A DNA stretch of 64,000 nucleotides from an uncultured virus (IMG/VR IMGVR_UViG_3300047160_003987) (IMGVR_UViG_3300047160_003987); one strand, 5' to 3'. Counted from the first letter of the stretch, positions 186 to 51,580 are shown. The notes: generated from the sequence alone by a model not told the origin. Numbers and translations are program-made.

Positions 186-227
186 GTTTATTCCTCCCTT
201 GCGCGGGTTTATTCCTCCCTTGCGCGG
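186..227. repeat. perfect 21-bp tandem duplication of the 3' end and stop of CDS 209..397
   Basis: GTTTATTCCTCCCTTGCGCGG x2; minus strand reads ...RAREE-TAA twice. Confidence 0.9.
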
Positions 228-397
228 GCGATCGCGTGCTCGAGCCATTGGTCCACTCGGCGCACGCGGTCCTCGTACATGTACAGTTCGATCTCCCCAC
301 AAAGGAAGGATCGTTCCAGCAACGGCGGCACATCGCTTTTATCTTGGTCCGCAACATTGCGGTGCGCGGGATGACTGTGCGGTTTTCTGGCTTTCAT
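209..397 (-). CDS. hypothetical protein
   Basis: 62-aa ORF with GAGG RBS, collinear with neighbouring early genes. Confidence 0.55.
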   Translation of the reverse strand: MKARKPHSHPAHRNVADQDKSDVPPLLERSFLCGEIELYMYEDRVRRVDQWLEHAIARAREE

Positions 398-404
398 GAT
401 CCTC

Positions 405-617
405 TTATCCCCTCTTTTTATTTAAGCGCCGGCTGATCTCTGCACGCATGCTTTCGCGCTGAATATCACTAAGCTGATCAGACTCCACATCAGAGATCAA
501 TTCAGAAGTGGTATACAACGCCCATTCCGAGACCGAGCGAGACCGACGGCGAGGACGTGCCGCTGCAAGAGCTTCCCATGCTCCACCGAATTCGCCGCCC
601 GGTATGGTCTTGGTCAT
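405..617 (-). CDS. hypothetical early protein
   Basis: 70-aa ORF starting directly after AGGAGCATCAC leader motif. Confidence 0.7.
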   Translation of the reverse strand: MTKTIPGGEFGGAWEALAAARPRRRSRSVSEWALYTTSELISDVESDQLSDIQRESMRAEISRRLNKKRG

Positions 618-709
618 GTGATGCTCCTGTATGCGAGCCCCAATGGCTCAATAATTATTTGTACCTTAAGAGAGGCGACGGTTCAACCGTCGCCCCAAGT
701 TATCCACAG
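618..709 (-). promoter_or_regulatory. early module copy 1: DnaA-box 12-mer, sigma70-like promoter, 5' hairpin, leader motif
   Basis: Minus strand: CTGTGGATAACT(709-698)-11 nt-TTGAAC-17 nt-TACAAA-8 nt-GAGCCATTGGGGCTC(649-635)...GAGCATCAC-ATG. Confidence 0.75.
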
Positions 710-716
710 CTATCCT

Positions 717-1019
717 TTACTCATCGTCGGAAACATGCCTCTGGACGATAGCTACCAGTGTACCCTGTGCATCTAAGGCGTCAATTTCTGCTCTCGCGGA
801 ACCGTCAGAGAACGAGGGATAGTCGCTAGGAACAGTGTAGACAAGATAGGCACTGTCGTCAGATGCAAGAGAGCAGCCTGGCCGGTATTCAGTGTAGTCG
901 TAGCCGAACTCCTTATCCACGGTCCCATCAGTCTTACGCGCCGCGTGCACGGGATCGTCAGCGTCAAGATCAGACCAGATATAACCGGACGCGTTATCAA
1001 CCAAAATGTAGCGGGTCAT
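717..1019 (-). CDS. hypothetical early protein
   Basis: Start reassigned to MTRYILVDN, directly after GAGCATCAC. Confidence 0.75.
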   Translation of the reverse strand: MTRYILVDNASGYIWSDLDADDPVHAARKTDGTVDKEFGYDYTEYRPGCSLASDDSAYLVYTVPSDYPSFSDGSARAEIDALDAQGTLVAIVQRHVSDDE

Positions 1020-1114
1020 GTGATGCTCTTTCGTTGGCGAGCCCCAGTGGCTCAATAACGATATGTAGCCACAGCCATGGCATCGGTTCAATTGCTATCT
1101 CGAGTTATCCACAG
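1020..1114 (-). promoter_or_regulatory. early module copy 2
   Basis: CTGTGGATAACT(1114-1103)-11 nt-TTGAAC-18 nt-TACATA-8 nt-GAGCCACTGGGGCTC(1053-1039)...GAGCATCAC-ATG. Confidence 0.75.
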
Positions 1115-11029: not shown

Positions 11030-11245
11030 TTACGTATAGTCGGAAGGTCGCAGATGTTCCCGGGAAATACCAATGGCCTTAGACAATTTTGTCACATGCT
11101 TCAACGGGATCACCTTCCACCTGGTTATGGCCTGTCTGCTGATCCCCAATATCTCGGCGAGCTGCACTCGGGTATACCCGCGCCTAAGCAGGTTCCGATA
11201 TGCCTCTCTATCGTTTCTGTGGATAACTTGCCAATTACTGCCCAT
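11030..11245 (-). CDS. Cro-like HTH regulator
   Basis: QLAEILGISRQAITRWKVIP...ISREHLRPSDY; divergent from the recombination operon. Confidence 0.85.
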   Translation of the reverse strand: MGSNWQVIHRNDREAYRNLLRRGYTRVQLAEILGISRQAITRWKVIPLKHVTKLSKAIGISREHLRPSDYT

Positions 11246-11337
11246 GCCACATTATGCCGATGCAAAGCTATGTTGACAAGAACAATACATCCGTTTACGA
11301 AAGACCCATGGGCCACAGGGGCCCGCTGGAGCATCAC
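11217..11337 (+). promoter_or_regulatory. early module copy 4
   Basis: CTGTGGATAACT (11217-11228), TTGACA (11273-11278)-17 nt-TACGAA-8 nt-GGGCCACAGGGGCCC (11310-11324), GGAGCATCAC-ATG. Confidence 0.75.
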
Positions 11338-11562
11338 ATGTCTGACTTCCCCACCATGATCATCGAACTGAACGACAATTCTTTCTGGCAAGTTCGCGAG
11401 ACCGGTTCTGCCGATCTTGCTCACGTCTGGCTCGGTGTTCAGGGCCGCTTCAATGCCAAGACCAAGGTCTTCACACCAAAGCCGAACCGCAAAGGCTCAG
11501 GCAACCGTCCCCGGCTAGTTTCCAAAGCTCACTGCTATCGCGTTCACGTGGCTGCCAATTAG
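11338..11562 (+). CDS. hypothetical early protein
   Basis: Start MSDFPTMI directly after the leader motif. Confidence 0.7.
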   Translation: MSDFPTMIIELNDNSFWQVRETGSADLAHVWLGVQGRFNAKTKVFTPKPNRKGSGNRPRLVSKAHCYRVHVAAN

Positions 11563-11578
11563 GCAGCCACTTCCTTTC
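11548..11578 (+). terminator. hairpin, possible intrinsic terminator
   Basis: GTGGCTGCC-AATTA-GGCAGCCAC then TTCCTTT. Confidence 0.5.
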
Positions 11579-11610
11579 CTCATTCCCGCAACCAACACCG
11601 AGCATCACCC

Positions 11611-11775
11611 ATGTTTACCGTTGAAACCTCGAATGGCCAATATGCCAAATTTTTCAGCCTCCAGGACGCCAAACGGTTCGCCGAAAACCTCAGGGAACTG
11701 ACCGGCAGGAACTATGACATTTACAAGCATGAGATGGTCTGGACGACGTCGCTGCTGGAGGAGGCATACCCATGA
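11611..11775 (+). CDS. 54-aa hypothetical protein (below cutoff)
   Basis: GAGCATCACCC-ATG; MFTVETSNGQYAKFFSLQDAKRFAENL...EEAYP*. Confidence 0.65.
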   Translation: MFTVETSNGQYAKFFSLQDAKRFAENLRELTGRNYDIYKHEMVWTTSLLEEAYP

Positions 11776-11870
11776 AAAAGGATCTTCTTGTCGACATCGG
11801 AATATGCCTGTTCCAAGCTGCCTGCGTTACCGTCATCATCATCGCCCTAGCAACTTTGATCGGAGTCTGA
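11772..11870 (+). CDS. 32-aa single-TM peptide
   Basis: GGAGGAGG RBS, ATGA overlap; MKKDLLVDIGICLFQAACVTVIIIALATLIGV*. Confidence 0.55.
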   Translation: MKKDLLVDIGICLFQAACVTVIIIALATLIGV

Positions 11871-11871
11871 C

Positions 11872-12768
11872 ATGTCAAACGTTGAAACCCGCGGCATTGG
11901 CGACAACGTCAACGTCGATCAAGCCAAGATCGTCACCAACCGCTTAGAACTCGACTATGCGGAAAGCGTCAAGCGGGTCCACAAATTGTGCGATGAAGCC
12001 CTCGCCCAGCCTGACGTCGTCCTCAGTGATCAGACTGCCCTGCAGCTGGGCGCCCTAATCAAACGCATCCGCGATCATGATCGCAAACTTGAAGCCTTTC
12101 GTGTCGCCGAGAAAGACCCTTATTTGCGCGCCGAACAGGGGGTCGACACTTTCTTCTTTTCGCTTCGTGATCTTTTGACAAGACGGAATAAAAATGACCG
12201 CGCGGTGAAGCCCGGTGCAGCCGATGATCTGCAGGCGCGGATCGACCGCTGGCAGGATGAAAAAGCGGCCAAGGAAAAGGCTCGCCTGGAAGCCGAGCGC
12301 CAACGCGCCGAGCGTGAGGCCGCGGAAGAAGCCGCTAAGCTAGCCGCGGCACAGGCAGAAGCTGATGAGGCTGCCCGGGCGGCTAGCCGGGCCAGGTCCT
12401 ATCAGAAAAAAAACCAACTCGCCGAATTGGCTCGCGATGCTTCCGACCGTGAGGCGGATGCCAAGGCGGCGGCCGATCTTGCGGCCATCAGGGCCGAGGA
12501 GGCCCGCGTAGCTACGCTGGCCAAGCCGGCTGACTTGGTCAGAGTCCGTGGCAATGATGCCAATGGAGGCGGTGTCACACTGACAGCCGCGCGCGAGGGC
12601 TACGCTATCCTCATCGATCGCAACAAACTCGATCTCAATGCCATACTTCCGTATCTTACCGATAGCGAGCTTGAGAAAGCATTGCGCGGGTTTGCCAAAG
12701 CCACTGGCTACGTGAAGCAACTTCCCGGCGCCGAGATCGGCTTCAAAAATAGAGGGGTGACCCGCTAA
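11872..12768 (+). CDS. coiled-coil protein of the recombination operon
   Basis: 298 aa, Ala/Glu/Arg-rich helix, ends LPGAEIGF. Confidence 0.75.
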   Translation: MSNVETRGIGDNVNVDQAKIVTNRLELDYAESVKRVHKLCDEALAQPDVVLSDQTALQLGALIKRIRDHDRKLEAFRVAEKDPYLRAEQGVDTFFFSLRDLLTRRNKNDRAVKPGAADDLQARIDRWQDEKAAKEKARLEAERQRAEREAAEEAAKLAAAQAEADEAARAASRARSYQKKNQLAELARDASDREADAKAAADLAAIRAEEARVATLAKPADLVRVRGNDANGGGVTLTAAREGYAILIDRNKLDLNAILPYLTDSELEKALRGFAKATGYVKQLPGAEIGFKNRGVTR

Positions 12769-13028: not shown

Positions 13029-13091
13029 AACAATGAAACGCCCATACATTCCGCTGCACGCGCCGGTAAAGAGGAAGAAGATTGTCTAACC

Positions 13092-13577
13092 ATGAAACGA
13101 CCAAATGTTCCTTTCCGAATAAGACTTAAGGTGCTCGAAAGACAAGTTTTCCTCGACCGCAAATTTTTGAACGAGGATGAGAGGGAAGCATATCGCGAAT
13201 GGTGCAATCTGCGCTGCCACGGCAAGAACATGCGTTGCAAGATACGCATCCTGATCGAGATCTTGTTCGGCGGCAGACAGGTTGAGCTGGACCATGATCC
13301 GGCTCTGGTATTACGACGCAGGAATAAGCGCACAGGTGACTATATACCTGCTGCTAACAATCCTCGCTTTCTCGTGTATCGGACTAAACCTGATCACCTG
13401 CGCAAGACTATTGGGCGAGCTACCGGCGCTGAACGAACCGTCACAAGCAAAGGATCGGATCGATGGCTGGCGAAAAAATTCCAGAAACTGGAACACCCGA
13501 AAAAGTCGAAGTCACGGAAGATACCATCGAGATCGTTCCGTCGCGCATCGCCACGACCGGCGCCCTCCTGCCGGTGA
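13092..13577 (+). CDS. HNH-like endonuclease (degenerate)
   Basis: ELDHDPAL...NNPRFL...HLRKT, basic tail. Confidence 0.6.
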   Translation: MKRPNVPFRIRLKVLERQVFLDRKFLNEDEREAYREWCNLRCHGKNMRCKIRILIEILFGGRQVELDHDPALVLRRRNKRTGDYIPAANNPRFLVYRTKPDHLRKTIGRATGAERTVTSKGSDRWLAKKFQKLEHPKKSKSRKIPSRSFRRASPRPAPSCR

Positions 13578-13804
13578 TCATCTGTGACTGTTGCGGAAAA
13601 GGGTTTTTGAATTGGCTACCAAGCGGGGTCGATGAGGATCCGCTGTGGTACTGGGACGGAGGCAACGTCGGCGGTTATGTCTGCGGTGGAGCCCTCAGAA
13701 TGATCAGCCGCGAAACTGCCATCATGATCGCGGATAATTTTCAAAAGATAGGAGTGGAAGCATGGTTAAGAGGACAACGAAAGCCGGACGAATTACTGCA
13801 ATAG
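13574..13804 (+). CDS. small Cys-containing hypothetical protein
   Basis: GTGA-coupled; ICDCCGKG...YVCGG. Confidence 0.5.
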   Translation: MIICDCCGKGFLNWLPSGVDEDPLWYWDGGNVGGYVCGGALRMISRETAIMIADNFQKIGVEAWLRGQRKPDELLQ

Positions 13805-14658
13805 TGCCGGCGCACAATGTAGTCGCGATAGATAGCACATCGCGGCTGATGCAGGCCATTGCCATAGCGGCCGCGGACCCGAAGTGCAATGTGCAGAAGA
13901 TGCAGGCGCTGCAAAAGATGTTCGAGGACATGGAGGATCGTCTGGCGAAGATCGCCTATGACAATGCACTCGCCGAACTGCAGGCTGAACTGCCTCAAAT
14001 AGATCGCACCGGCCGGCTGATCATCCGCAAGAAAGACCCGAAAACCGGCGAGAGAACCGGCCCCATTGACCAGGCGACGGCTTATGCGAGATGGGAAGAC
14101 ATCATGGATATTCTGCGGCCGGTCCTCAGCCGGTTCAGGTTCTCGCTGTCATTTCGCACCGCCAATGATGATGCCGGACGCATCAAGGTAACCGGTGTCC
14201 TGGCGCGCAGTGGGCATCGCGAGGAGACTACCATCACGCTACAGCATGATAGCACCGGCTCGAAAAACCCGGTGCAGGCGGTCGGATCATCCAACTCATA
14301 CGGCAAACGCTACACTGCTGGACTGCTTCTGAACATCGTCACCTGCGGCGAGGACGATGATGGCGGCACCCGACGCGAGCCTGCCGGCAGAAAGACAATA
14401 AGCCCCGAACAACATGCCGAATTGATCAAACTTGCAGAGGAAGCTGGCGCTGACATCGCACGGTTCTGCGCTATGCTCAAGGTCGACAGCCTCATCGACA
14501 TCCCGGCATTGCGGTATGAGGAAGCCAAGGCCCAGCTGTTGCGCAAGAAGAAGGCGAAGGAGAGAAAAGCCGCCGAGGCAACCTCTGACTTCCCGGGTGA
14601 CAGACCTCTCAAGACTGAACCACCCAAGAACGAGTTCACCAAGGGAGGGATGCGATGA
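13762..14658 (+). CDS. erf: ERF-family single-strand annealing protein
   Basis: YARWEDI..., SGH.E, QAVGSSNSYGKRYT...LNI...DDDG. Confidence 0.9.
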   Translation: MVKRTTKAGRITAIVPAHNVVAIDSTSRLMQAIAIAAADPKCNVQKMQALQKMFEDMEDRLAKIAYDNALAELQAELPQIDRTGRLIIRKKDPKTGERTGPIDQATAYARWEDIMDILRPVLSRFRFSLSFRTANDDAGRIKVTGVLARSGHREETTITLQHDSTGSKNPVQAVGSSNSYGKRYTAGLLLNIVTCGEDDDGGTRREPAGRKTISPEQHAELIKLAEEAGADIARFCAMLKVDSLIDIPALRYEEAKAQLLRKKKAKERKAAEATSDFPGDRPLKTEPPKNEFTKGGMR

Positions 14659-16501: not shown

Positions 16502-16604
16502 TATCCTTCCGAGGTTCCAAATAGGCCGTTAATTTGGCAAATTAGCCGCCAATTTCTTTTTGTTCCCCCGACGTTCCGCCTCTGTTCGAACCTCGGACAA
16601 AATG

Positions 16605-16649: not shown

Positions 16650-16650
16650 G

Positions 16651-33015: not shown

Positions 33016-33792
33016 TCAAAAGCTCATTGGACGCACCCGCCCTAGCGTCGATGTGATCTTATTGCCTTCGCGTTTCAGCTCAGTGAATGCGCGATAGGCC
33101 TCACCAGGCTGCGGGTCCGGATAGGGCGACATCGCAAGTGCCATCTGTTGGTTTCGCGTGACGTGTGTCGCGACCTCAAACTTCGCACGAGATCGGATCA
33201 GCCGCTCAGCGTTCTGCGGCGTCATCCAAACATTGTTTTCCTCGACGTCTGACGATGGCGGCGGCATTGCAAGATGGCAGCCGATCCAACATTTATAGGC
33301 CGCCACCGGGACCGGATAGAGGATCAGCGTATTGCCTTCATATGCATAGCTCGTCGGCAACCCGAATTGCGTAAAAAGCTGAATGTTCAGGTGCTGGCGT
33401 TCCGGCGTATTCTGCGACAGTTTCATCAATGTATTGCCAATTTGAATGTTGATGTAGTCGATCATAAACATGGTCGAGATGGCTGGGCAGTCGGCCGTCG
33501 AATAAGTCGACTGAGATGGCACCGTCATGAACGTAGTCGGCATCGCCGGATCGATCTCATTGAAGCGAAAACGGTGCTTCTGATACTCATAGATCGCCGT
33601 ATCGATCGCATTGCGGATCGCCTCGGCATTCGGCCGTGACTGAGTTGCCGTGCCGCGCGCACCGGCCAGATCAAACCGTGCTCCAAGCTCAGCCGCGATC
33701 CGAAAGATCATGGTCGTGAGATCAGACACGATGCCAACGCCAGCAAAGCCGGCGCTAAACCCTGGACTAAAGGCGCGATCGGTATCGCTCAT
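33016..33792 (-). CDS. head-tail adaptor / tail tubular A
   Basis: G.PTSYAY...LYPVP...NVWMT...LIRSRAK. Confidence 0.75.
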   Translation of the reverse strand: MSDTDRAFSPGFSAGFAGVGIVSDLTTMIFRIAAELGARFDLAGARGTATQSRPNAEAIRNAIDTAIYEYQKHRFRFNEIDPAMPTTFMTVPSQSTYSTADCPAISTMFMIDYINIQIGNTLMKLSQNTPERQHLNIQLFTQFGLPTSYAYEGNTLILYPVPVAAYKCWIGCHLAMPPPSSDVEENNVWMTPQNAERLIRSRAKFEVATHVTRNQQMALAMSPYPDPQPGEAYRAFTELKREGNKITSTLGRVRPMSF

Positions 33793-33835
33793 TGTATTCT
33801 CATTGCAGTGCCACTCATTGTATTCTCATCGCCGT
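33788..33835 (-). repeat. diverged duplication of a gene 3' end (period 26)
   Basis: ACG GCG ATG AGA ATA CAA TGA ... ACT GCA ATG AGA ATA CAA TGA (TAMRIQ* twice, synonymous changes only). Confidence 0.9.
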
Positions 33836-35035
33836 CACTGTGCTGTCTTTAGAATTGCCGGTCGTATTGAACGCGATCTTGCCGGTAGTTGCGGTGATAT
33901 CCTTGCAGCTGATCCTGATGTTGCCGGCCGGCGTTGCAAGAACGCCAGATAGTGATATCTTGGTCGTGGCCGCCGCAGTGATCTGTGCAGCAGCGCTAGA
34001 GATAACTGTCGTACCATCCCACAACTTGCAGTAAAACGTCGCCGCAGCCGTGTCATTCAGCGTCACCGTCCCACTCGCAAACCATGTGCCACTGACGCCC
34101 TGTGCCACGCTTGGTCCATCGAAGTAATTCGCAGTGTTTGTAAGTGAAACATCCGCACCGAGAGAATTGACAACAGAAGTCAATGATACCGCGCAGGTAC
34201 CCGTGCTTGTGATCACGCCACCCGATAGGCCGGTGCCACAGCCGACCGACGTCACAGCCGGCGGGATGGTCGGCTGACCCCACGCCGGAATGCCTGTTGC
34301 ATTTTCAGAGAGGAAATTAGTCCCAGAATTGTTCCCCGGGATCGTGACCCAAGCGCTGCCATTATAGTAGGCGACATCACCGGCGCGAGTCGGCGTCGGG
34401 AATGCAAGGCTAGCAAGGTTGCTCGCCCACGACGGAACACCGCTGCTGCTTTCCTGTAGAACTGCAGTTGACGTATTGTTGCCGGGAATGGTGACCCAAG
34501 CGGTCCCATTGTAATAAGCAACATCGCCGGCTCGGGTCGGCGTGGGAAACGCAAGGCCGCTGAGGTTGGTGACCCATGAGGGAACGCCTCCACCCGTCTC
34601 CTGCAGCACAGCCGGCGTTGTATTATTGCCAGCTAACGTAACCCACTGTGTCCCGTTCCAATAGGCGATGTCTCCCGTCCGGGTGATCGGGGGAAAGATA
34701 TTGTTAGCCGCACCAGACTGTGTAGTCGCGCCTGTACCACCTCCAGCGAGCCCAAGCGCGACTGAGCAGACGTTGGTGAGACCGGTGGTGCCGAAGTAAC
34801 AGGCATGGCTGTTGGCCGTGAGCGGCGATGTCGGCAGCATCGAATAAATGACATTATTGAGAAACTGACGCAGAATGGCCGGCGTGATGCCACCCGCGGT
34901 CTGATCGGGAAATTGCGTCTGCACGTCATTGAGAAGCTGCTGTTGCGTACAGGGCGCCGTGCATGTCGGGGTCGTCTGAGCTTCGCAGACAGACAGCCAT
35001 AGCGTGGAAAGCAGGATAGCAAGAAGTGCTCGCAT
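33815..35035 (-). CDS. fibre-like protein with three ~41-aa repeats
   Basis: FP..TR.GD.AY.NG..WVT..GNN....L.E...G.P.W x3; signal-like N-terminus. Confidence 0.7.
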   Translation of the reverse strand: MRALLAILLSTLWLSVCEAQTTPTCTAPCTQQQLLNDVQTQFPDQTAGGITPAILRQFLNNVIYSMLPTSPLTANSHACYFGTTGLTNVCSVALGLAGGGTGATTQSGAANNIFPPITRTGDIAYWNGTQWVTLAGNNTTPAVLQETGGGVPSWVTNLSGLAFPTPTRAGDVAYYNGTAWVTIPGNNTSTAVLQESSSGVPSWASNLASLAFPTPTRAGDVAYYNGSAWVTIPGNNSGTNFLSENATGIPAWGQPTIPPAVTSVGCGTGLSGGVITSTGTCAVSLTSVVNSLGADVSLTNTANYFDGPSVAQGVSGTWFASGTVTLNDTAAATFYCKLWDGTTVISSAAAQITAAATTKISLSGVLATPAGNIRISCKDITATTGKIAFNTTGNSKDSTVTAMRIQ

Positions 35036-37923: not shown

Positions 37924-38259
37924 TCAGTATCGCCAGCCCCAGCGCCTGCCATAGTAGCGACGAACCATCAACGGCGGCCGAAGGCCATACACCTCGTCAT
38001 CGCTCTCAGCATAGCCATTGCGATAGCCATAGGCCGAGATCGCTGGAAATGGATCGATCACGACTGGACCACCGTAGTAGCCATAGCTCGGGCCACCACC
38101 GTAGTAGCCATAACTCGGCAATACCGGCAAAGCGCCTTGACCCCCCCAAGCCGATGCATTGCCATAACCGTCATAACAGCCGCATTTCGCTAGGACGGGA
38201 GATGTAACAAAAAATAGTGCAACAATTATTGTTATAAAAACCCTCAAGAGCATTTTCAT
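37924..38259 (-). CDS. secreted Gly/Tyr-rich protein
   Basis: Signal-like N-terminus; PSYGYYGG x2. Confidence 0.6.
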   Translation of the reverse strand: MKMLLRVFITIIVALFFVTSPVLAKCGCYDGYGNASAWGGQGALPVLPSYGYYGGGPSYGYYGGPVVIDPFPAISAYGYRNGYAESDDEVYGLRPPLMVRRYYGRRWGWRY

Positions 38260-38270
38260 TGAAATTCCTC

Positions 38271-39557
38271 CTAATATCGCCCCGAGAAGTCCCGCCCCAT
38301 GATCGCATCCAGTTGAGACTTCGGCATATTATCAACATAAATACCGAATTCTTCGTCGTTCATATGCAGCAGCCGCTCCATGCTCAGAGGCTCGCCTGGC
38401 GGACTGCCGCCGCCATCGGACAGCGAGCGTGACGCATTCGCACCGGCCATTTCCGCCTGTATCTGCGCCACCGCACTGGGCATCCGTGGGGCAAGACCAT
38501 TGGACATCCCGGGGGCAAGACCATTGACGGCAGGCCGGTTTTGCCCCAGCCCCCCCGATCTGGGCGCCACTGGAACTCTGGTCGGGGGTGCAGGCTGCTG
38601 CTGTTGGGGCTGCGGCGGCCGCCAACCACGCGCCTGGGCATAGCGCATGATAGAACGCGCCGGGCTGCGCCGGTTCTGCAGCGCATCACTGACCAACTGC
38701 CGTTCCTCATTGTTGAACTCGTTAATGATCTGGTCGACCTCGGCTTGCGTGAACCGTTCATTCGGGTCTCGCGGGTCCTTCTCGAAGAGCGCAAAGCTTA
38801 GCTCGAGCAGCCGGCTGTTCTTCAAAAACTGATAAGCGCCCTCGGGCCCAAAAAAGTGCTGCCCCTCCGCAGTCTGCGTAAACCGGTTGGTGTCGTTGGT
38901 GTAGTCACGCACCATGTTCTGATAGGACAGCTGGTCTTGCGTATCCTCCTGCTGCTGCATAGAGGAATTCATCATGAATATCTGCCGGCGCTGCATCTGC
39001 GCGATCGAGGCGGCCAAATCGATATTCGGGTCGATCGTTTGCTCCAACATCGGGTTCTGCAGAATTTGCTGCTGCCGGGCGTATTCCTGCTCTTGCGGTG
39101 TCAGTTCCCGAGGGGGTGGCGGCGCCATCAGCGCGTCATTGAGGATCGCCAGCCTTTCCGCCAGCTTGGCCTGGCTGATCCGCCCCTCTTCCAGCTGGGC
39201 TCGGAACGCCTCATTATCGGCGCGCGCCTGTTTCAACAGCCGTTGGTGCTTGCCATAAGAGATCGTGCGCTGTTCCCTGCCGGTCCGCGGATCTCGGATC
39301 ACCTGATCCGGTTCATCATCCTCTTCAGGCTCAGGCTTGGGCTGTGCGGGAGCCGGTGGTGCGTGCTCTCCGGTGTCGGGCCCGGGCGCATCAGCACCCT
39401 CCTCTGGGGTTTTTGGCAGCGTCCTGTCGGCATCGCGCATCTCGTCGAAGGCTTGCTGTTCCTCCGGCGTCAGCCCCTGCTCGTTAAGCTGATCGGTCGG
39501 TTCCGGGATATGGCCTTCCTCAACGTCCCCAATTCTCTCCGCCTGCAAGCCTGCCAT
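38271..39557 (-). CDS. putative capsid scaffolding protein
   Basis: Acidic disordered N-terminus, coiled coil, C-terminal SLSDGGG...LLHM.DEEF; between portal and capsid. Confidence 0.7.
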   Translation of the reverse strand: MAGLQAERIGDVEEGHIPEPTDQLNEQGLTPEEQQAFDEMRDADRTLPKTPEEGADAPGPDTGEHAPPAPAQPKPEPEEDDEPDQVIRDPRTGREQRTISYGKHQRLLKQARADNEAFRAQLEEGRISQAKLAERLAILNDALMAPPPPRELTPQEQEYARQQQILQNPMLEQTIDPNIDLAASIAQMQRRQIFMMNSSMQQQEDTQDQLSYQNMVRDYTNDTNRFTQTAEGQHFFGPEGAYQFLKNSRLLELSFALFEKDPRDPNERFTQAEVDQIINEFNNEERQLVSDALQNRRSPARSIMRYAQARGWRPPQPQQQQPAPPTRVPVAPRSGGLGQNRPAVNGLAPGMSNGLAPRMPSAVAQIQAEMAGANASRSLSDGGGSPPGEPLSMERLLHMNDEEFGIYVDNMPKSQLDAIMGRDFSGRY

Positions 39558-42472: not shown

Positions 42473-42961
42473 TCAGCCCCCCATCCTCTTTTCCAGTATC
42501 TTAAGCCGCTTGTCGAAGTCATCGAGATATTCGATCATGCTCTTCGGCGGCGCATTGTATTCCCCATACATCTGTTGCCGCAGCACGTTGATCTTGTCCT
42601 GCAGCATCACCGCATTGTCGTCGGTGGCATCGTACAGCATCTCAAGCGTCAATTGGCTTGGCCTCGGTTCATTCTGGATCGGTATGACCGCAGTCCAGCA
42701 ATGATGCTGCTGCTGCTCACTATACTCATGAACCCGCTGCTCCCAGATCACATCCTCAGCCTCAAAACAAACAATGAGGTCGACCGAGCCATCGTCCTCG
42801 TGCTGCTTGAGCACGACCGCGGGAAACTCAGTGCGTCCCTGTCGCATTGCACCATGGCGGCCGCGATAGACCACCCAATTGCCGATCCCAACACGTTTGA
42901 TCTTCTGGATATTCGGATCGGCCTCAGCCATCCGCTTTGTCGTCTCCATGAGATGGCTCAC
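42473..42961 (-). CDS. hypothetical protein
   Basis: GGAGG plus GTG start; 162 aa. Confidence 0.6.
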   Translation of the reverse strand: MSHLMETTKRMAEADPNIQKIKRVGIGNWVVYRGRHGAMRQGRTEFPAVVLKQHEDDGSVDLIVCFEAEDVIWEQRVHEYSEQQQHHCWTAVIPIQNEPRPSQLTLEMLYDATDDNAVMLQDKINVLRQQMYGEYNAPPKSMIEYLDDFDKRLKILEKRMGG

Positions 42962-43229
42962 TTTGGGGTACCTCCTTCATAAACTGCTTGGCCGCCTTGA
43001 TCGCTAATTCATTGATATCCTCGCGCAGAGGTGCCTCGATCTCTACCGTATGCTCGGTTCCCCCGGGATCAATAACACGGAATGTCAAAACCTGCCACTG
43101 ACCCTTGCCATCCGAGGTGGCACGATAGTTCATCAAGCCGTCTTTGAGACTATAGCCAGCTGGCAACTGATCTATGAAGTGCTGTCGCACCAGCCTTATT
43201 CCCGAGAGCGGCATTTCTTCTTCTCCCAT
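42924..43229 (-). CDS. hypothetical protein
   Basis: Collinear ORF in the packaging operon. Confidence 0.55.
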   Translation of the reverse strand: MGEEEMPLSGIRLVRQHFIDQLPAGYSLKDGLMNYRATSDGKGQWQVLTFRVIDPGGTEHTVEIEAPLREDINELAIKAAKQFMKEVPQSEPSHGDDKADG

Positions 43230-43483
43230 GCCTCGATCATACGCTCGCTATACTCATCCGCAGCCATCAGCCTGTTTCGATCATCAAGCTTAACCTCAAT
43301 GACGTTACAACGGTCAGAGGTTGGCGGTGCGTCATAGTCGGTCACCCTGGGATCATGCCAAAGCTGAATGCGATATCGGCCATTGGGGCCAAGGCGATCC
43401 ATCAACATATGATGGGCTTGATCCAGCTGTGTCGCATGGCTGCACTCAAACATATACATCGCAGTACCTCGGTCTCTCATCAC
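43196..43483 (-). CDS. hypothetical protein
   Basis: Start overlaps the orphan HiPIP 3' copy. Confidence 0.55.
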   Translation of the reverse strand: MMRDRGTAMYMFECSHATQLDQAHHMLMDRLGPNGRYRIQLWHDPRVTDYDAPPTSDRCNVIEVKLDDRNRLMAADEYSERMIEAWEKKKCRSRE

Positions 43484-43514
43484 TCTTTCCTGTCAAAATA
43501 CTTGCACCAGCCCT
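43480..43514 (-). repeat. orphan copy of the HiPIP gene 3' end (direct repeat with 44302-44336)
   Basis: 30/35 identical; GWCKYFDRKE* versus GWCKYFDRKG*; 4 of 5 differences synonymous. Confidence 0.9.
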
Positions 43515-43516: not shown

Positions 43517-44296
43517 CTATACACCGCACATCCCCTCACATTCATTGTTGAAAAGATCAGGCTGACCGATCTCGGCATCACTGCGAAGATCTACTTCCGC
43601 CAACAGCTTGCATGACCGATGCATGAATTGTTGTCCTTTCATCTTCGCCTGATGGCGGATGGCTGTATCGACTTTAATCGCATCAGCCAATTCCTCACTG
43701 CTCAATGACCGCCATTGCGCATCAGAATGAAATGGACACCCAATGCAAGAAGACTTCGGAGCATTCCAACCGGCGCGATCGAGCCACGCATGACAGTCCG
43801 CACGGTTCATTCTTAATTCGATCAATGGCCATCGGTTAACGACATACTGCACGCGCGATGGTTTCATGCGGAAAGCTTCATCGGTGGAGATGCCAAGCCA
43901 CATCTCCGTGGCACCCTTTGCGCGCCGACCGCCGTACATCTCCACGATCTTGCGACGAACTGGCTCGAGCTTGTAATGCGCAGTACATTGCCGGCGACCC
44001 ATGCCGATCGATCCATCAGTCTTGATAATAAACCAGGGAACCGCAGCATATTGTCCAGCGCGAGCCGATACCCCGGCGATCATGTCATCGCGAATATTGC
44101 TCGTGCTGACCCGATAGACTGGAAACGCTAAAACTTTCTCTAGCCGGCCAAGATGCTCGTAGACCGCCCTAGGCTCCCAACCCGTATCGGCAAAGATCGC
44201 ACAGTCCGGCATAGGTCCGATCTCTCGCTTTGTCGCCATCAACGCAAGCGTCGTCGACTGCACACCAGCCCCGAGAGAAATGATCCTCAATACCAT
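43517..44296 (-). CDS. PAPS-reductase/adenine-nucleotide alpha-hydrolase superfamily protein
   Basis: PP-loop ISLGAGVQST, IFADTGWEP, RQCT, KSSCIGCPFH, C-terminal ECEGMCG. Confidence 0.85.
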   Translation of the reverse strand: MVLRIISLGAGVQSTTLALMATKREIGPMPDCAIFADTGWEPRAVYEHLGRLEKVLAFPVYRVSTSNIRDDMIAGVSARAGQYAAVPWFIIKTDGSIGMGRRQCTAHYKLEPVRRKIVEMYGGRRAKGATEMWLGISTDEAFRMKPSRVQYVVNRWPLIELRMNRADCHAWLDRAGWNAPKSSCIGCPFHSDAQWRSLSSEELADAIKVDTAIRHQAKMKGQQFMHRSCKLLAEVDLRSDAEIGQPDLFNNECEGMCGV

Positions 44297-44301
44297 AATT
44301 A

Positions 44302-44466
44302 TCACCCCTTCCGATCGAAATACTTGCACCAGCCCTTCGGACTGATCAGCCCCTTCACGATCTTGCAGCCATCCGGCTCAATGAAAAACCTGCACAGCGC
44401 GCAACGCTCGTTCATGTATTTTGCCCAAGACGTATAGTCTGCCGCCTCCTTGCTCATGGTACCCAT
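44302..44466 (-). CDS. HiPIP-like high-potential iron-sulfur protein, 54 aa (below cutoff)
   Basis: Manual translation MGTMSKEAADYTSWAKYMNERCALCRFFIEPDGCKIVKGLISPKGWCKYFDRKG*; Y...CxxC-x8-C-x12-C with ISPxGWC; AAGGA RBS. Confidence 0.8.
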   Translation of the reverse strand: MGTMSKEAADYTSWAKYMNERCALCRFFIEPDGCKIVKGLISPKGWCKYFDRKG

Positions 44467-46820: not shown

Positions 46821-46907
46821 TTACCAACCGGACTTTGGCTTCGGCCTGCGCCAGCTAGGCTTTGGCTTCGGTCTGCGAGGCGGCTTGGGTTTTGGTTTCC
46901 TTGCCAT
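46821..46907 (-). CDS. 28-aa Pro/Lys/Arg-rich peptide
   Basis: GAGGAG RBS; MARKPKPKPPRRPKPKPSWRRPKPKSGW*. Confidence 0.6.
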   Translation of the reverse strand: MARKPKPKPPRRPKPKPSWRRPKPKSGW

Positions 46908-46923
46908 TTCGTTCTCCTCATTT

Positions 46924-47036
46924 TCACCTACGGGCTTGGCTTTACTGGCGATGCCCTGCTGGAACCGCCAGTAAACATCTTTGATCATCTACGAACCTGG
47001 CCACCCCCTGTTACCTACGGGGTTGGCCACCGCTGT
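46924..47036 (-). repeat. three diverged copies of the 3' end of CDS 47011..47589 with an intervening inverted repeat
   Basis: SGGQPRR* (47036-47011), GGGQVRR* (47010-46985), SQARR* (46941-46924); TTTACTGGCG/CGCCAGTAAA at 46941-46975. Confidence 0.75.
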
Positions 47037-47589
47037 AGGCGACTGAACCACTCGCGGAAGCTGAACCGCTTGCGCTCCCGCTGCCGCCGTCCGGGGGGAC
47101 CGGTTGCGGCTTGCCACCTCCGCCCGGTGGGTACCAGATCAGAACAAAACCCCACCTGTTCGTCCAGTACCATTGCCAGCCCTCGCTAAGCCCACCATCG
47201 GGCGGACATATCGGCGGCTTTTCCGGTGGGGTTGGCGGTTCTGGCAGCACGATCGGATGCGCCGGATGGGGCGGCATCGGCCGCGCCCACGGCGGCGAAT
47301 AACCCGGATCAACCGGAGGCTCGGGATAGTGGATCGGCGGTGTCGCCACTGGAGGATAATAGATCGGCGGCGTCGCTATGCCAGCAGGAGGATAGTGGAT
47401 CGGTGGCGTGACCACAGCATCTGGAGGCCATACCCCAGGCGGTTGGTAGATCGGATGCGCCGGATAGACCGGGGGTGTCGCGATCGGATGCGCAGGAACA
47501 GGCGGCGGTCCAGGGATGCCATAGCCTGGATCGACCGGACGCTGCTGATCATCAAGCAGAATGATGTACGCAAGAGAACTCCTCGCCAT
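47011..47589 (-). CDS. proline-rich repeat protein
   Basis: PVDPGY x2, PAHPI and TPPI(H/Y)YP repeats; AGGAGG RBS. Confidence 0.75.
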   Translation of the reverse strand: MARSSLAYIILLDDQQRPVDPGYGIPGPPPVPAHPIATPPVYPAHPIYQPPGVWPPDAVVTPPIHYPPAGIATPPIYYPPVATPPIHYPEPPVDPGYSPPWARPMPPHPAHPIVLPEPPTPPEKPPICPPDGGLSEGWQWYWTNRWGFVLIWYPPGGGGKPQPVPPDGGSGSASGSASASGSVAYSGGQPRR

Positions 47590-47603: not shown

Positions 47604-47972
47604 CTATTGGTTATCCGCCATGAACCCGGGGGGAAGCACATTCCCCATCCCACCGGTAACACCGGGGACCGCTGTCGGTGCGCCCATGTCCGGTAACGAG
47701 GCCGCAGCGCCCGGAACGGGTAAAGGCGCAGCAACGGGCCGTTTCTTTCCGATCGCCCCAAAGGGCGCTTTCGGCAATGCTGGCATTTTGGGGATACCAG
47801 GCGGGGCCGCGATCGAAGCGGCGATCCTGTCATGATGGGCTTGCGTGATGTGCCCCTGCTGCAGCAGATGTTTTGCACTGGCACGGGTCAGGTTGCGCAT
47901 ATGAGACGGCGTCTGTGCCATCATCTGAGCCGGTGTCTTTGTCATCATCATATGAGCTGATATCTTTGCCAT
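47604..47972 (-). CDS. Met/Pro/Ala-rich hypothetical protein
   Basis: 122-aa ORF. Confidence 0.6.
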   Translation of the reverse strand: MAKISAHMMMTKTPAQMMAQTPSHMRNLTRASAKHLLQQGHITQAHHDRIAASIAAPPGIPKMPALPKAPFGAIGKKRPVAAPLPVPGAAASLPDMGAPTAVPGVTGGMGNVLPPGFMADNQ

Positions 47973-48014
47973 GATAGCGACCCTTTCTCAAAACGCCGGC
48001 ACCGTATCAGACCA

Positions 48015-48362: not shown

Positions 48363-48686
48363 CTATCTCTGAGGTTCCACATGGTCAACTGGGGGCTTAC
48401 TCTCGACTGGAAGCTTATTCCCTTCGGTCTCGACTCGGGGCTTATTACCTTCGATCATCTGCTGCACGACCTCGCAAGTCTCAATGACCGCCACCGCCTT
48501 GCCATCAGCCAAATTGATCAGGCAATTGGTGGCCTTGTGATACATCCGATCATGCTCGGTCACACCTTCCCGCGGCCCACGCAGACTCGTTATCTGATCC
48601 GGGTTGACCTCAATGGCCGCGCCATCAGCACCATGCAATAGAATAAGAACGAACAGGAAGAGCATATCTTCCCCCATCTGTTGCAC
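48363..48686 (-). CDS. FlbD-like small protein
   Basis: LILLHGADG..IEVNPDQI...INLADGK...V.ET...V pattern. Confidence 0.55.
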   Translation of the reverse strand: MQQMGEDMLFLFVLILLHGADGAAIEVNPDQITSLRGPREGVTEHDRMYHKATNCLINLADGKAVAVIETCEVVQQMIEGNKPRVETEGNKLPVESKPPVDHVEPQR

Positions 48687-50494
48687 TACGCAAGGACAAC
48701 CCCCTTCCAGGCGCCGTCATATATCCAGAACTTGTGGTTGGTCGTGTCATAGATCATAGGCACAAGACCGGTATATGTCGCCGCGGGAACACCAGTCGGT
48801 GCACCGGCGCACGTGGGAATGTAAAAGAAGCCGGTTGTGGCAGTCGTAGCAAGCGCGCCACCGACAGCGGCCCCGACAGCAACATTGCGCTTGCTGTCGA
48901 TACGAAGCGCCTCAATAGGGGAAACAGAGCCACTGGCGGCAACATCGAAATACAAAGCCCCCGGCATCCCGCCAACAGCTGGAACATTATCAACCAGCGC
49001 ACGGATCTGAGACGATCTGCCAAACTGCGTGCTGTCATCCCCGGCAAACACAAGCCGGCCAATTTCATCCGCATTCTGAACCGTGGTGAATGTACCGGGA
49101 CTGGTAGACCGGGACTTGAGCATCTGCAGAGAAACGCCTCGGTTATCCGCTATCCAGGCCTGATAACCCGCCCCACCGGTAAAGTCAGCATAACCGGCAA
49201 TATTCAACCTCGGTACGGATAACCCGGATGCCGCATAACGCTGGCCCGTGGTCAGGCCCAGGAATGTCTCCCCACTCGGTCCGGTAAATATGCCAGCCAG
49301 CGCAGGCGAGCTGACGTTGCCGCCCCCGTTGCCAACGTACCACGTGTTTCGAACCATGATGGTCGTGTTGGCAACGGCATTGTTGATACCATAGCCAGCA
49401 TTGTTGCGGATCGTTGTGCCATCAACAAGGATGATAACCGTCGTACTGTTGTTCCGAATGCCATCCCGACCCGAATTGTAAATTGTCCCGCCGATAAACT
49501 GCACAATGCCGTTATGGCCGCTGACAATACTTACATCGTCCTGGCCGGACGAACTCGATGCGATCCAGGTGCCATCAAATGAAAACCAAGCACTGGCATT
49601 GGTCAACGTGTCGGCAAGCTGAACACATGGCCCGCTTGACGGACTATCAAGCGCCAAAGCCGGACCGAAGAAAACCTCACGGTTGCCCTCGGCGGCATAG
49701 TCATTTGAAATACGTAAATTTATGCCGTTGCCAATAACGTTGCCCGAATTGAAATACAGTCCGCCAAACCCGCCAGCGACATGAACGCCGATAGCGCATA
49801 ATGAAACCTTCAGGCCTTCGCGAATGGTTAGATCAGCCTTTGCACCTGTACCCACTGTGCCGTTAATGCGCAGTCCATCCTGTTGGGCAACTATCTCACG
49901 CCCACCATAGACGCAATTATCCAAAGCATCCCACCAAACGCCATTGAAAAGCTTGTTGCCGGCCGCGCCGTAGCGGGACTGCCCGGCTACGCTGAAATTA
50001 ATTTCGGACTGGATGACGTTCTTGATATGAACGGCAGCGCCTGCCGTCATGGTCGTATTGCTATCGATATAAATAGAACCAATTCTTATCCGGGCCTGCT
50101 GCACAGCGCCAGTAATGTCACCCACAGTAATGATGTCTGATGTGGTTCCCGCACCTGTATATCTAATTACGACCTCTGTAGCGGCACTCTGGGTTTCTAA
50201 CGCAAAATAACTGCCATTCAACGTCAACGGCTGCGATGTCATGTAAATGCCGGAAGATAAAACACCGGCTCGAGGAGCAGATAAAGAAGCGCCTGCCAGC
50301 CATGTAAAAAACGCCTGCAAAGCAATACTGTCATCCGTCGCACCATTCCCAACAGCGCCAAAGTCTTTTGCATTCGCAACCATTGCAAACCGGTCCGCAA
50401 GGTCCTGCGATGTCGTTCCCACACTCGCCAAAAACGGCAAGCTATTTATGTCGGTCCCCACAATTTGGCGAGAAAAGACCATTGTTGCCTCCAT
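48686..50494 (-). CDS. tailspike / right-handed beta-helix protein
   Basis: NAKDFGAVGNGATDDSIALQA pectate-lyase-3-type start; Gly/Asn-rich coils; fibre-like C-terminus. Confidence 0.8.
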   Translation of the reverse strand: MEATMVFSRQIVGTDINSLPFLASVGTTSQDLADRFAMVANAKDFGAVGNGATDDSIALQAFFTWLAGASLSAPRAGVLSSGIYMTSQPLTLNGSYFALETQSAATEVVIRYTGAGTTSDIITVGDITGAVQQARIRIGSIYIDSNTTMTAGAAVHIKNVIQSEINFSVAGQSRYGAAGNKLFNGVWWDALDNCVYGGREIVAQQDGLRINGTVGTGAKADLTIREGLKVSLCAIGVHVAGGFGGLYFNSGNVIGNGINLRISNDYAAEGNREVFFGPALALDSPSSGPCVQLADTLTNASAWFSFDGTWIASSSSGQDDVSIVSGHNGIVQFIGGTIYNSGRDGIRNNSTTVIILVDGTTIRNNAGYGINNAVANTTIMVRNTWYVGNGGGNVSSPALAGIFTGPSGETFLGLTTGQRYAASGLSVPRLNIAGYADFTGGAGYQAWIADNRGVSLQMLKSRSTSPGTFTTVQNADEIGRLVFAGDDSTQFGRSSQIRALVDNVPAVGGMPGALYFDVAASGSVSPIEALRIDSKRNVAVGAAVGGALATTATTGFFYIPTCAGAPTGVPAATYTGLVPMIYDTTNHKFWIYDGAWKGVVLA

Positions 50495-50543
50495 TCATCT
50501 CATGTAGGTCCCAACAAGTTCATCTCATGTAGGTCCCAGCAAG
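50494..50543 (-). repeat. 25-nt tandem duplication of a gene 3' end
   Basis: TTG CTG GGA CCT ACA TGA GATGA then TTG TTG GGA CCT ACA TGA GATGA (LLGPT* twice, one synonymous change). Confidence 0.9.
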
Positions 50544-50767
50544 TAAAAACCATCCGCACCCAAAAGAAGCTCACCGTCAGCCCCCACCAAATAAACCAAC
50601 CCAGACCCCAATAAATAAGCACCATCTCCACCCTGAAGGAACGCGCCATCAGCCCCCTGCAAATAAACTAACCCATCCGGTGGAACAGGAAGCTGAGGCT
50701 CAAACACAATGCGCCGCGCGCTCTCGATCGTGTAGCGAAGCTGCGCCTTCGTGGTGAGAATTTTCAT
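50525..50767 (-). CDS. small protein with L.G(A/G)DG repeats
   Basis: YLQGADG, FLQGGDG, YLVGADG, LLLGADG. Confidence 0.65.
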   Translation of the reverse strand: MKILTTKAQLRYTIESARRIVFEPQLPVPPDGLVYLQGADGAFLQGGDGAYLLGSGLVYLVGADGELLLGADGFYLLGPT

Positions 50768-51255
50768 TTCTTCTTCTTAACGTCTGCAGCAGGTGATCTC
50801 GATGACGGAGATACATCCTCGACCGGCGAAACCTCTTCCCATGGCGGCATAGATGATCTCTTGGCTACATCCGGTTGTGCGTTCTTGACCATATCGGGTC
50901 CCTCGATCTCCCCTGACTGCCCTGTGCTAGGTGGCGGCATGTAACCCGGGGGCCACGGCACCGGGTTGTTAGGGTTGAGCGGCATATTGACCGGATATTG
51001 CCCATAATGGGGCGGAATAGCTGGATCATCGCCATCCTTCACCCATTTCGGGATCTTTTGACTAGTGATCGAAAGATCAGTCAGCGCATCCTCGACTTTG
51101 TAGATGATCGCCTGCACACGTTCCTGGCTGTTGCATTGGCCAAGATCACCTCTGATCTCTTTGAAGGCCGCCGTGTTCGCCTTGATGACATCGACAAGAC
51201 CGTCATGCGAGGTCTTGGCATTCAACACCGGCAACAACATTGCGTTGGTATCCAT
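50764..51255 (-). CDS. hypothetical protein
   Basis: GGAGG RBS, 163 aa. Confidence 0.65.
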   Translation of the reverse strand: MDTNAMLLPVLNAKTSHDGLVDVIKANTAAFKEIRGDLGQCNSQERVQAIIYKVEDALTDLSITSQKIPKWVKDGDDPAIPPHYGQYPVNMPLNPNNPVPWPPGYMPPPSTGQSGEIEGPDMVKNAQPDVAKRSSMPPWEEVSPVEDVSPSSRSPAADVKKKK

Positions 51256-51267
51256 CCTCTATCCTCC

Positions 51268-51531
51268 CTACGGAAGCATTTTGAATAAATGTGACTTCTG
51301 CGTCGGCGATCCGCTGTCATAGGCAAATATCACCTGCACCAACGCATCATGCGCCCCCGTGACATCAGCCGCAACAATATCGGTGCGCGCATCTTGCGAT
51401 GCGAAATACCTCGTAATGAGCGTGCTATCCGCATCTATGATCGAATTGGTCGTGCGCAGGTCTTCGATCATCGCAATGAGGCTCTGGATCTTCGAGACAT
51501 ACAAGTTCATGAAACTGATAGGGTTCGACAT
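51268..51531 (-). CDS. hypothetical helical protein
   Basis: 87 aa; RBS lies in the duplicated gene end. Confidence 0.65.
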   Translation of the reverse strand: MSNPISFMNLYVSKIQSLIAMIEDLRTTNSIIDADSTLITRYFASQDARTDIVAADVTGAHDALVQVIFAYDSGSPTQKSHLFKMLP

Positions 51532-51580
51532 TTACCCAACTCCCATTCTGAACATCTTATCCGACTCCCATAAGAGACAT
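51532..51580 (-). repeat. diverged duplication of a gene 3' end (period 25)
   Basis: ATG GGA GTC GGA TAA ... ATG GGA GTT GGG TAA (MGVG* twice, two synonymous changes). Confidence 0.8.

Follow-up and report, generated by a model that had tools for sequence, protein, structure and literature searches.

Among described systems, those closest to the gene ends analyzed here are the repeats of Borg elements, the MIRU sequences of operons, the att duplications of integrative elements and the engineered genomes of refactored phages. We compare them with eight "echoed" gene ends, at which the last codons and the stop codon of a gene are followed by a second copy of themselves, in a stretch of 64,000 nucleotides (nt) from an uncultured virus (IMG/VR IMGVR_UViG_3300047160_003987), whose whole length (64 kb) we call the window. 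The Borg account of Schoelmerich et al. (2023) describes perfect repeat regions that are enriched in A (PMC9879509). [quoted passage not shown] According to a review, MIRUs are short repeats at start codons within operons; each contains an ORF coupled at -4 (an ATGA-type overlap) to the gene that follows, so that expression is disturbed little (PMC12548453). An overlap of this type is found at two of the echoes (sites 4 and 6 below) and in a pair of the related contig L025, and the mini-ORFs described below resemble the coupled ORF of MIRUs. MIRUs form one family distributed over many loci, with units longer than 21-28 nt, whereas each unit in the window copies its own locus and no dispersed family is seen here.

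The att duplications of integrative elements share with the echoes a working gene end followed by a slightly different spare copy, with a gene between the two at one of our sites. Unlike them, the echoes come with no recombinase and no common core, seven of the eight sites contain no cargo or only ~60 nt, and the set includes identical copies, arrays of 3-5 units in relatives and repeats of the same size inside genes. In the refactored phages T7.1 and decompressed phiX174, overlapping coding and ribosome-binding sequences were reportedly separated by duplicating the overlap. The echoes are similar in that the superimposed end of one gene and initiation region of the next become two independently changing copies, and dissimilar in being natural, unplanned and present at about one gene junction in eight in the window. 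In the open-access literature that we searched, we found no account of such junction duplications in phages. The results presented below show that the feature is non-random and clade-specific, and that its most likely origin is an ordinary one, namely local tandem duplication followed by selection.

Echoed gene ends in the window

The window is nearly all coding, the minus strand predominating, and all eight echo sites are read on the coding (minus) strand.

Site 1: 186-227, minus strand, 21-nt unit present twice, identical (RAREE-stop)
Site 2: 26945-26996, minus strand, period 26 (GSQGFGG-stop and GTQGFGG-stop)
Site 3: 28620-28664, minus strand, period 28 (SAVGG-stop and TAIGG-stop)
Site 4: 33788-33835 (feature 33782..33838), minus strand, period 26 (TAMRIQ-stop, twice)
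Site 5: 43480-43514 and 44302-44336, minus strand, copies of ~35 nt (GWCKYFDRKG-stop and ..KE-stop) located 822 nt apart with a cargo gene between them
Site 5 cargo: 43517-44329, minus strand, 813-nt gene for a 270-amino acid (aa) PAPS-reductase-like protein (phrog_424, E value 5.6e-45)
Site 6: 46924-47036, minus strand, three copies (GGQPRR-stop, GGQVRR-stop and SQARR-stop) in the true frame of a 192-aa gene
Site 7: 50494-50543, minus strand, 25-nt unit present twice with 1 mismatch (LLGPT-stop)
Site 8: 51532-51580, minus strand, period 25 (MGVG-stop, twice)

A first-pass annotation of the window had reported at least eight echoed gene 3′ ends, and all eight were recovered at the coordinates given above. 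To quantify them, we compared the terminal 18 nt of 78 genes with the 90 nt that follow, scoring the best ungapped match (threshold ≥13/18), the expectation being given by gene ends paired with the downstream regions of other genes. Seven of the 78 ends are echoed within this distance, compared with 0.16 expected, at offsets of 21, 25, 26, 28, 87, 26 and 25 nt; the eighth echo is 822 nt off, beyond the PAPS-reductase-like gene. The same test on annotated gene ends gave 0/68 in P22, which has Erf, and 0/64 in lambda. A scan that makes no use of annotation detected 13 tandem pairs with ≥75% whole-unit identity, at periods of 21-27 nt, against 0.15 in 20 Markov shuffles, and no such pair in the window at periods of 28-60. 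Under a 15-of-18 criterion restricted to non-triplet periods of 19-29 nt, the window has four matches, all at junctions, while there are three in 332,686 nt of unrelated viral contigs, two in 149,270 nt of distant prophage loci, one in the 70,172-nt relative G002, none in P22 and one in lambda, the latter corresponding to the ori iterons. Junction duplications are thus far above chance and the observation is real; the comparison with shuffled sequence and unrelated phages, and the narrow range of periods (21-28 nt), bear out what had been observed in the sequence. The non-triplet periods (25, 26, 26 and 28, and weaker ones of 25 and 26) are all on junctions, and pairs located within genes have periods of 24 or 27 only.

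The units span the junctions of co-oriented, tightly packed genes (the upstream one called A and the downstream one B hereafter). They contain the last 4-8 codons and the stop of A, to which a spacer, the start codon and a few bases of B are usually added. Copy 1 ends gene A and copy 2 provides the Shine-Dalgarno and start of gene B, with copy 2 beginning at least 15 nt 5′ of the start of B at 7/7 tandem sites. At site 1, the unit corresponds to the last five codons and TAA of ORF 209-397, plus 2 nt. At site 2, ORF 26971-27525 really ends in copy 1 (26971-26996, ..GSQGFGG, TAA), while copy 2 (26945-26970, ..GTQGFGG, TGA) holds a GGAGG Shine-Dalgarno, 5 nt upstream of the GTG start of a 785-aa gene. 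Site 3 takes in the last codons of ORF 28648-28956 together with the start region of the ejection-protein gene 27529-28617, and at site 4 the ATGA in which ORF 33815-35035 stops and ORF 33016-33792 starts has been duplicated. The unit of site 7 consists of the end of ORF 50525-50767 (LLGPT, TGA) plus 7 nt; the tail-fibre gene downstream has its own GGAGG and ATG (50482) just past copy 2, and an extra ATG also terminates at the echoed stop. Site 8 is the end of ORF 51557-52228 (MGVG, TAA).

The first-pass annotation had also described cargo between the copies, which holds for the pair at 43480/44302, six of the eight sites being strictly tandem; extra DNA is present only at site 5 (the 813-nt gene) and at site 6 (~60 nt). 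At site 6, the 192-aa ORF 47011-47589 ends with GGQPRR, TAA; the copy at +26 nt (GGQVRR-stop) has a TGA that overlaps the ATG of the 55-aa ORF 46821-46988, and the third copy (SQARR-stop) is found at +87 nt, after the extra DNA. At site 5, the working copy (44302-44336) is the real end (GWCKYFDRKG-stop) of the 54-aa zinc-ribbon-like ORF 44302-44466, and the spare copy (43480-43514, GWCKYFDRKE-stop) has a TGA overlapping the ATG of ORF 43196-43483. The PAPS-reductase-like gene is absent in the relatives G002 and L025: in G002, the small zinc-ribbon gene is directly followed by the homologue of ORF 42924-43229, and L025 has neither that gene nor the cargo. As judged from these gene orders, site 5 is a true insertion, and the spare end, with its ATGA overlap with ORF 43196-43483, marks the former junction. 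A pre-existing duplication may have offered the point of insertion, or duplication and insertion may have been produced together by a single illegitimate joint. The small site-5 gene also has a homologue in a distant phage (L067), where no PAPS-reductase gene follows it and which was uninformative about the insertion. The small-gene content of the terminase-to-portal stretch differs among relatives.

Each unit matches only its own neighbour, and by eye no common sequence is found among the units of the eight sites. A candidate junction motif, TGAGATGAAT, was rejected, given that it has 6 matches vs. 4.67 expected. We likewise rejected a link between duplication and hairpins: inverted repeats are present near sites 1 (14-bp stem) and 6 only, and 4/7 sites have none. 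The one near site 1 is a perfect hairpin (154-182, 1-nt loop) between the duplication and the Shine-Dalgarno of the next gene, and was scored as terminator-like on the plus strand.

Repeats of the same size class also occur at gene starts, 3/78 of which are echoed vs. 0.28 expected (27 nt at 60022; 24 and 27 nt at 47921; 59 nt at 13092), and inside genes.

13029-13111, plus strand, start echo with a spacing of 59 nt, an 18-codon mini-ORF (MKRPYIP..) resembling the start of ORF 13092-13577 (MKRPNVP..)
47898-47975, minus strand, start echo, the 8 codons that open ORF 47604-47972 present three times in frame (27 and 24 nt)
60001-60049, minus strand, start echo, 27-nt repeat, in frame, comprising the initial codons of ORF 59843-60049 with their ATG and Shine-Dalgarno
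38474-38521, minus strand, in-gene duplication of 24 nt, in frame (NGLAPGMS/NGLAPRMP), in the linker of a 428-aa protein
23596-23649, minus strand, in-gene duplication of 27 nt, in frame, in an 883-aa protein
46824-46877, minus strand, in-gene duplication of 27 nt, in frame (RRPKPKPSW/RRPKPKSGW), in the small ORF 46821-46988
48401-48454, minus strand, in-gene duplication of 27 nt, in frame, near the C terminus of ORF 48363-48686

The presence of this size class inside genes and at starts indicates that the duplicating process is not aimed at gene ends, and in a genome with so little spacer DNA, non-triplet lengths would survive at junctions only. In the relatives, the protein with the linker duplication at 38474 is ~10 residues shorter at this position, and the gene start echoed at 47898-47975 carries a distinct duplication, of 26 nt, in L025.

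When a non-triplet duplication copies a true start codon, the extra start opens a mini-ORF, and in 5/5 cases the first base of its stop falls within -5 to +1 relative to the true start, each with a chance of ~1/3. The five mini-ORFs are MSTAIGG-stop at site 3 (stop 5 nt upstream of the true ATG), MSGTAMRIQ-stop at site 4 (stop overlapping the true ATG), MFRMGVG-stop at site 8 (TAA abutting the ATG of ORF 51268-51531), the 18-codon ORF ahead of 13092 (stop 5 nt upstream of ORF 13092-13577) and MKTPSRHMT-stop in L025. The three in-frame start duplications merely lengthen the protein. Such a frame rule is expected if selection eliminates variants in which translation from the extra start crosses the true start in another frame, and a mini-ORF stop at or near the true start means that the hand-over of ribosomes can be kept.

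Relatives and divergence between the copies

Related contigs, obtained by protein-seeded scans of viral contigs and one metagenome scan, have ~66-89% amino-acid identity to the window, those compared at sites 2-4 being relatives of ~75-80% nucleotide identity. Six of the loci (L001-L006) are 100% identical at the tested sites and the genome G001 is identical over the 10 kb compared, so that these are uninformative for comparison. The non-identical relatives have single-copy junctions: 14/14 loci at site 4, 3/3 at site 3 (L007, L009 and G002) and 1/1 available at site 2 (L009). Three DNA-pattern scans of viral contigs (sites 4, 7 and 2) gave no donor or empty-site form of these sites; they returned identical contigs with both copies and unrelated chance matches, and the site-4 pattern also matched related contigs, all of them single-copy. 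The one metagenome scan contained no exact donor either, and no strain was seen to use a spare copy as its working end.

The relatives carry duplications of their own at other positions. Before the homologue of a 581-aa virion gene, a 25-nt unit (MRPMKF-stop, 4 nt, then ATG or GTG) is arrayed, with three identical units in L007, L009 and L014, five in L016, at least five in L049, and three slightly diverged ones in six further loci; the window has a single copy at this junction (33007/33016).

L016:4580-4710, 25-nt array of five units
L007:1714-1790, 25-nt array of three identical units
L010:4725-4805, 25-nt array
L049:1-130, 25-nt array of at least five units

L009 has a 26-nt pair at another junction; in L025, apart from the 26-nt pair at the gene start mentioned above, a small gene ends with a 27-nt unit in three copies. 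The 581-aa gene and the virion gene after it are separated by an additional ~1.6 kb in L009:3392-5004, L010:6543-8155 and L008:2091-3769, which the window lacks.

The first-pass annotation had named, as one example of a possible mechanism, allele replacement at gene ends driven by Erf and YqaJ, which are the products of the following two genes, identified with PHROGs and Pfam.

13762-14658, Erf
14655-15293, YqaJ-type exonuclease

G002, a complete genome of 70 kb, matches 52/78 window proteins, including Erf, the exonuclease, the NinB-like protein, the resolvase and the helicase, and has no such pairs or echoes. As this relative has the module without the echoes, Erf/YqaJ is not sufficient and the habit belongs to a sub-clade. 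Together with the echo-free P22 and the same-size repeats inside genes, this result speaks against an Erf/YqaJ process directed at gene ends.

We then compared the two copies with each other. Codon differences inside the echoes comprise 14 synonymous, 2 stop-to-stop and 5 non-synonymous ones (the computed tally was 14/2/7, from which two boundary codons outside the site-5 repeat were removed), which agrees with the predominance of synonymous differences noted in the first-pass annotation; the stop codon switches between TAA and TGA at sites 2 and 6. Six differences could be polarised with the relatives, three being derived in copy 1 and three in copy 2. Those in copy 1 are all synonymous or stop-to-stop (site 2 GGC>GGT and TGA>TAA; site 4 ACT>ACG), and 2/3 of those in copy 2 are non-synonymous (site 3 TCA>ACA and GTC>ATC). 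This polarity, in which the working copy has gathered the synonymous changes and the spare copy the non-synonymous ones, is what is expected for drift after a local duplication. Mismatches, counted by reading, affect 11/97 nt of the coding part and 10/30 nt of the post-stop part, the latter with 2 indels in addition; the contrast fits a model in which the tail of copy 1 is free and the initiation region is under constraint in copy 2. The youngest-looking pairs are site 1, with identical copies, and site 7, with 1/25 different, both having flanking homology of only 1 nt. Joining or fill-in is thereby favoured over slippage between direct repeats, and these pairs are not products of classical slippage at microhomologies, in agreement with the earlier view that the echoes are not simple slippage duplications.

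Origin of the duplications

Based on these results, we think that the echoes are probably local head-to-tail duplications which survive only where they are harmless to both genes. According to this model, in situ head-to-tail duplications of 21-28 nt would arise throughout the genome in this phage clade, and the harmless ones would persist. As the genes abut or overlap (ATGA, TGATG, or spacers of a few nt), a non-triplet duplication would survive only across a junction, where copy 1 would still end gene A and copy 2 would still give gene B its Shine-Dalgarno, spacer and start. Inside genes, only in-frame sizes (24 and 27 nt) would survive, in tolerant linkers or termini. A unit that includes the start codon of B would open a mini-ORF of 7-18 codons, closed by the stop in the echo, which coincides with the true start or immediately precedes it, such that terminating ribosomes could still be handed to gene B. 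After duplication, copy 1 would keep its coding role and drift synonymously, its post-stop tail being free to decay, while copy 2 would keep the translation-initiation role. The duplications, their sizes and positions, the frame rule, the single-copy relatives and the arrays of variable copy number are observed; the selection filter, this division of labour and the translation of the mini-ORFs we infer.

The size range may be set from both sides. A junction duplication must carry the stop of A and enough sequence upstream of B for Shine-Dalgarno spacing, which gives a lower bound. As to how the units form, we would guess at events of the end-joining or fill-in type that use hardly any microhomology or none, longer repeats being erased fast by the annealing recombination of the phage. 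In E. coli, Shen and Huang are said to have placed in 1986 the minimal length for efficient annealing recombination in the mid-20s bp, and the idea would be that repeats above this length collapse quickly, which would give an upper bound; the stable multi-unit arrays of the relatives fit poorly with such an erasure threshold.

Several observations weigh against local duplication under selection. The model gives no cause for the narrow size range and its upper bound, nor for the restriction of the trait to a clade, a 70-kb relative with the same Erf/YqaJ/NinB-like/RuvC-like genes being free of echoes; and the extra DNA between the copies at sites 5 and 6 needs a second event. No strain of 90-99% identity was found in the protein-seeded, DNA-pattern or single metagenome scans that might have given an age for a duplication or shown it as a polymorphism in the strain of the window. 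The synonymous-type share of the codon differences is 16/21, compared with 0.39-0.45 expected if copy 2 were junk (P 0.003-0.016 for this model, computed on 16/23), an excess that appears to need copy 2 to be constrained about as much as copy 1; with equal changes in both copies, the expected share would be ~0.64 and 16/21 unremarkable. At site 4, the spare copy differs from the working end of L011 by 1/21 and from the working copy of the window by 2/21, and it may thus be a foreign or ancestral allele. Moreover, the relatives are mosaic gene by gene (96, 76, 54, 74, 85, 85, 46, 73, 63, 45 and 38% amino-acid identity along L009/L010), and L011 displays an in-register crossover <250 nt from the site-4 junction, upstream of which it is like L014 (80.7% to the window) and downstream like L016 (76.3%). 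Mosaicism and this crossover indicate that recombination at junctions does occur. We also tested whether mosaic boundaries coincide with echoes; per-gene identity jumps at echo junctions and equally at echo-free ones, so that this test does not discriminate.

A rival explanation, to which we give a minor but real chance for the diverged pairs, is out-of-register (illegitimate or homeologous) recombination between related phages; it amounts to the proposal of the first-pass annotation minus the att site. Both copies would then have been working gene ends, with A, its end and a few bases of B coming from one parent, and the last codons of A together with B from the other. The synonymous excess, the stop switches, the resemblance of the site-4 spare copy to L011, the mosaic relatives and the cargo at site 5 all agree with it, as does site 3, where the B-start fragment of copy 1 (ATGAGTA) is nearer to the start in L007 (ATGACTA) than to that of the window (ATGGGTT). 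However, all relatives are single-copy at the sites compared and no donor was found in the contigs scanned, and the L011 crossover, the sole one seen at an echo junction, left no echo. Identical or near-identical pairs and arrays of 3-5 identical units are impossible from diverged parents, the polarised non-synonymous changes sit in the spare copy, the in-frame duplications inside genes have the same size, and illegitimate joints predict broad overlap lengths rather than 21-28 nt. For the more specific proposal of the first-pass annotation, namely that an incoming allele supplies a new gene end as at an att site, the single-copy relatives and the lack of a donor, of a common core and of a recombinase add to the identical pairs and arrays, and this reading is not supported. 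No integrase had been visible in the sequence, and indeed no integrase, transposase or recombinase catalytic family is among the families listed for 79 ORFs with PHROGs (best 5 families per ORF) or for 30 ORFs with Pfam. This absence also counts against seeing the echoes as footprints of a mobile element or a nuclease making staggered cuts ~26 bp apart, i.e., as target-site duplications or break fill-in, which we hold to be very improbable. Such an origin would match the sharp upper limit of the sizes, the flanking homology of ≤1 nt in recent pairs and the gene still located between repeats at one site, yet the units share no motif by eye, the recurring 10-mer tested above is at chance, the 3-5-unit arrays are unlike target-site duplications, and clean excision leaving only the duplication would have to be the rule.

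Two further proposals concern what the repeats may do and how a single process may make them. Chains of stop/start mini-ORFs could set the flow of ribosomes from A to B, copy number tuning or switching expression, and short ORFs delivering ribosomes to a coupled downstream gene are described in the review cited above (PMC12548453). This functional proposal, which we find improbable, addresses the persistence of the repeats and is compatible with their origin by local duplication. It draws on the frame rule (5/5), on the Shine-Dalgarno and stop retained in the spare copy, on the variation between close relatives at the 581-aa gene junction (3 vs. 5 units), and on the one gene start at which the window (27 and 24 nt) and L025 (26 nt) have separate duplications of independent origin. 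The frame rule is, however, equally expected from the removal of harmful variants, the in-gene duplications cannot work in this way, and most sites have two copies that are fixed in all sampled contigs. It is also conceivable, though unlikely, that a DNA process of the clade or its host with a ~26-nt ruler (2.5 helical turns) makes the junction duplications, the mini-ORF relays and arrays being used to uncouple overlapping signals and tune virion genes; candidates for it are fill-in of staggered breaks followed by rejoining, or the survival of repeats too short for erasure by Erf/YqaJ. Among the 30 ORFs scanned with Pfam, there is no Ku, ligase or polymerase gene that could act in end-joining.

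Lastly, we examined whether strain mixtures joined at the junctions during assembly could have created the echoes, a concern already raised in the first-pass annotation and a legitimate one, since several related strains share the same soil samples. Window sequence is present in 24 soil-metagenome runs (21 samples and studies) at 0.91-0.99 of sampled words, 12 of the 24 being flagged as possible sources. Sites 4-8 are spanned, with 0 differences and 0 gaps, by contigs that a different assembler had produced from four further soil runs (site 4 in three runs, sites 5 and 6 in one 5,875-nt contig, site 7 in three contigs and site 8 in two); in this comparison, parts of the stretch are not covered in run X19. 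Both copies are also present in viral contigs of other samples, four at site 4, four (of four matches) at site 7 and three at site 2. In addition, an artefact would neither follow the reading-frame rule nor always contain a stop codon. The assembly explanation is thus largely refuted, and we attach next to no probability to it. The contigs of the four runs, which may hide rare variants, show no indel at any echo and hence no copy-number polymorphism in the strain of the window.

Genome context and implications

The window reads as a tailed phage from a lineage without a close named relative, and 10 kb of it gave no megablast match to named phage records. Among the products identified with PHROGs and Pfam are a major head protein, the portal, the large terminase, ejection and tail-fibre proteins and an endolysin, as well as a helicase, two DNA methyltransferases, a RuvC-like resolvase and a NinB-like protein. 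The head protein has distant prophage relatives, mostly in alphaproteobacterial assemblies, including ones of Shinella, Phenylobacterium and Hyphomicrobiaceae. In the window, Rfam gave 0 matches at the gathering threshold and the tRNA scan found 0 genes.

Several other regions of the window were recorded. At 11030-11900 lies a divergent regulatory region, in which a minus-strand gene for a 71-aa helix-turn-helix (Cro/repressor-like) protein faces plus-strand genes leading to the Erf/YqaJ/NinB-like block; a 16-nt tandem repeat is located within it, at 11229-11263. A long C-run/G-run inverted repeat (ccgccccccc...ggggggggc) at 16590-16650 (minus strand), 3′ of the endolysin gene, may be a terminator between converging gene blocks. 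The minus-strand ORF at 52232-58591 encodes 2119 aa with 62% GC and no PHROG match, and carries 33-nt in-frame repeats (54485/54518 and 57308/57341), similar ones being found in its G002 homologue. A small secreted-looking protein encoded at 37924-38259 (minus strand) is rich in YGY repeats (PSYGYYGG twice, from a 27-nt pair at 38068-38118); this repeat is also present in relatives and is thus older than the junction echoes. A weak ParA-like match is located at 61861-62073.

For annotation, the echoes are a warning, because spare copies and mini-ORFs resemble alternative gene ends or tiny genes. The narrow size range and the restriction to a clade are the only parts that might indicate new enzymology, and if the ~26-nt ruler were real, the echoes would be a natural version of genome refactoring. 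The diverged pairs suggest that the C terminus of one gene and the ribosome-binding site of the next evolve apart after duplication. The echoes would also be dispensable stretches able to take up a new gene, of which site 5 is an example. Taken together, this tailed phage would show how packed genes tolerate insertions, in that duplications survive only if they regenerate the stop of one gene together with the start signals of the next, in a frame that passes the ribosomes on.

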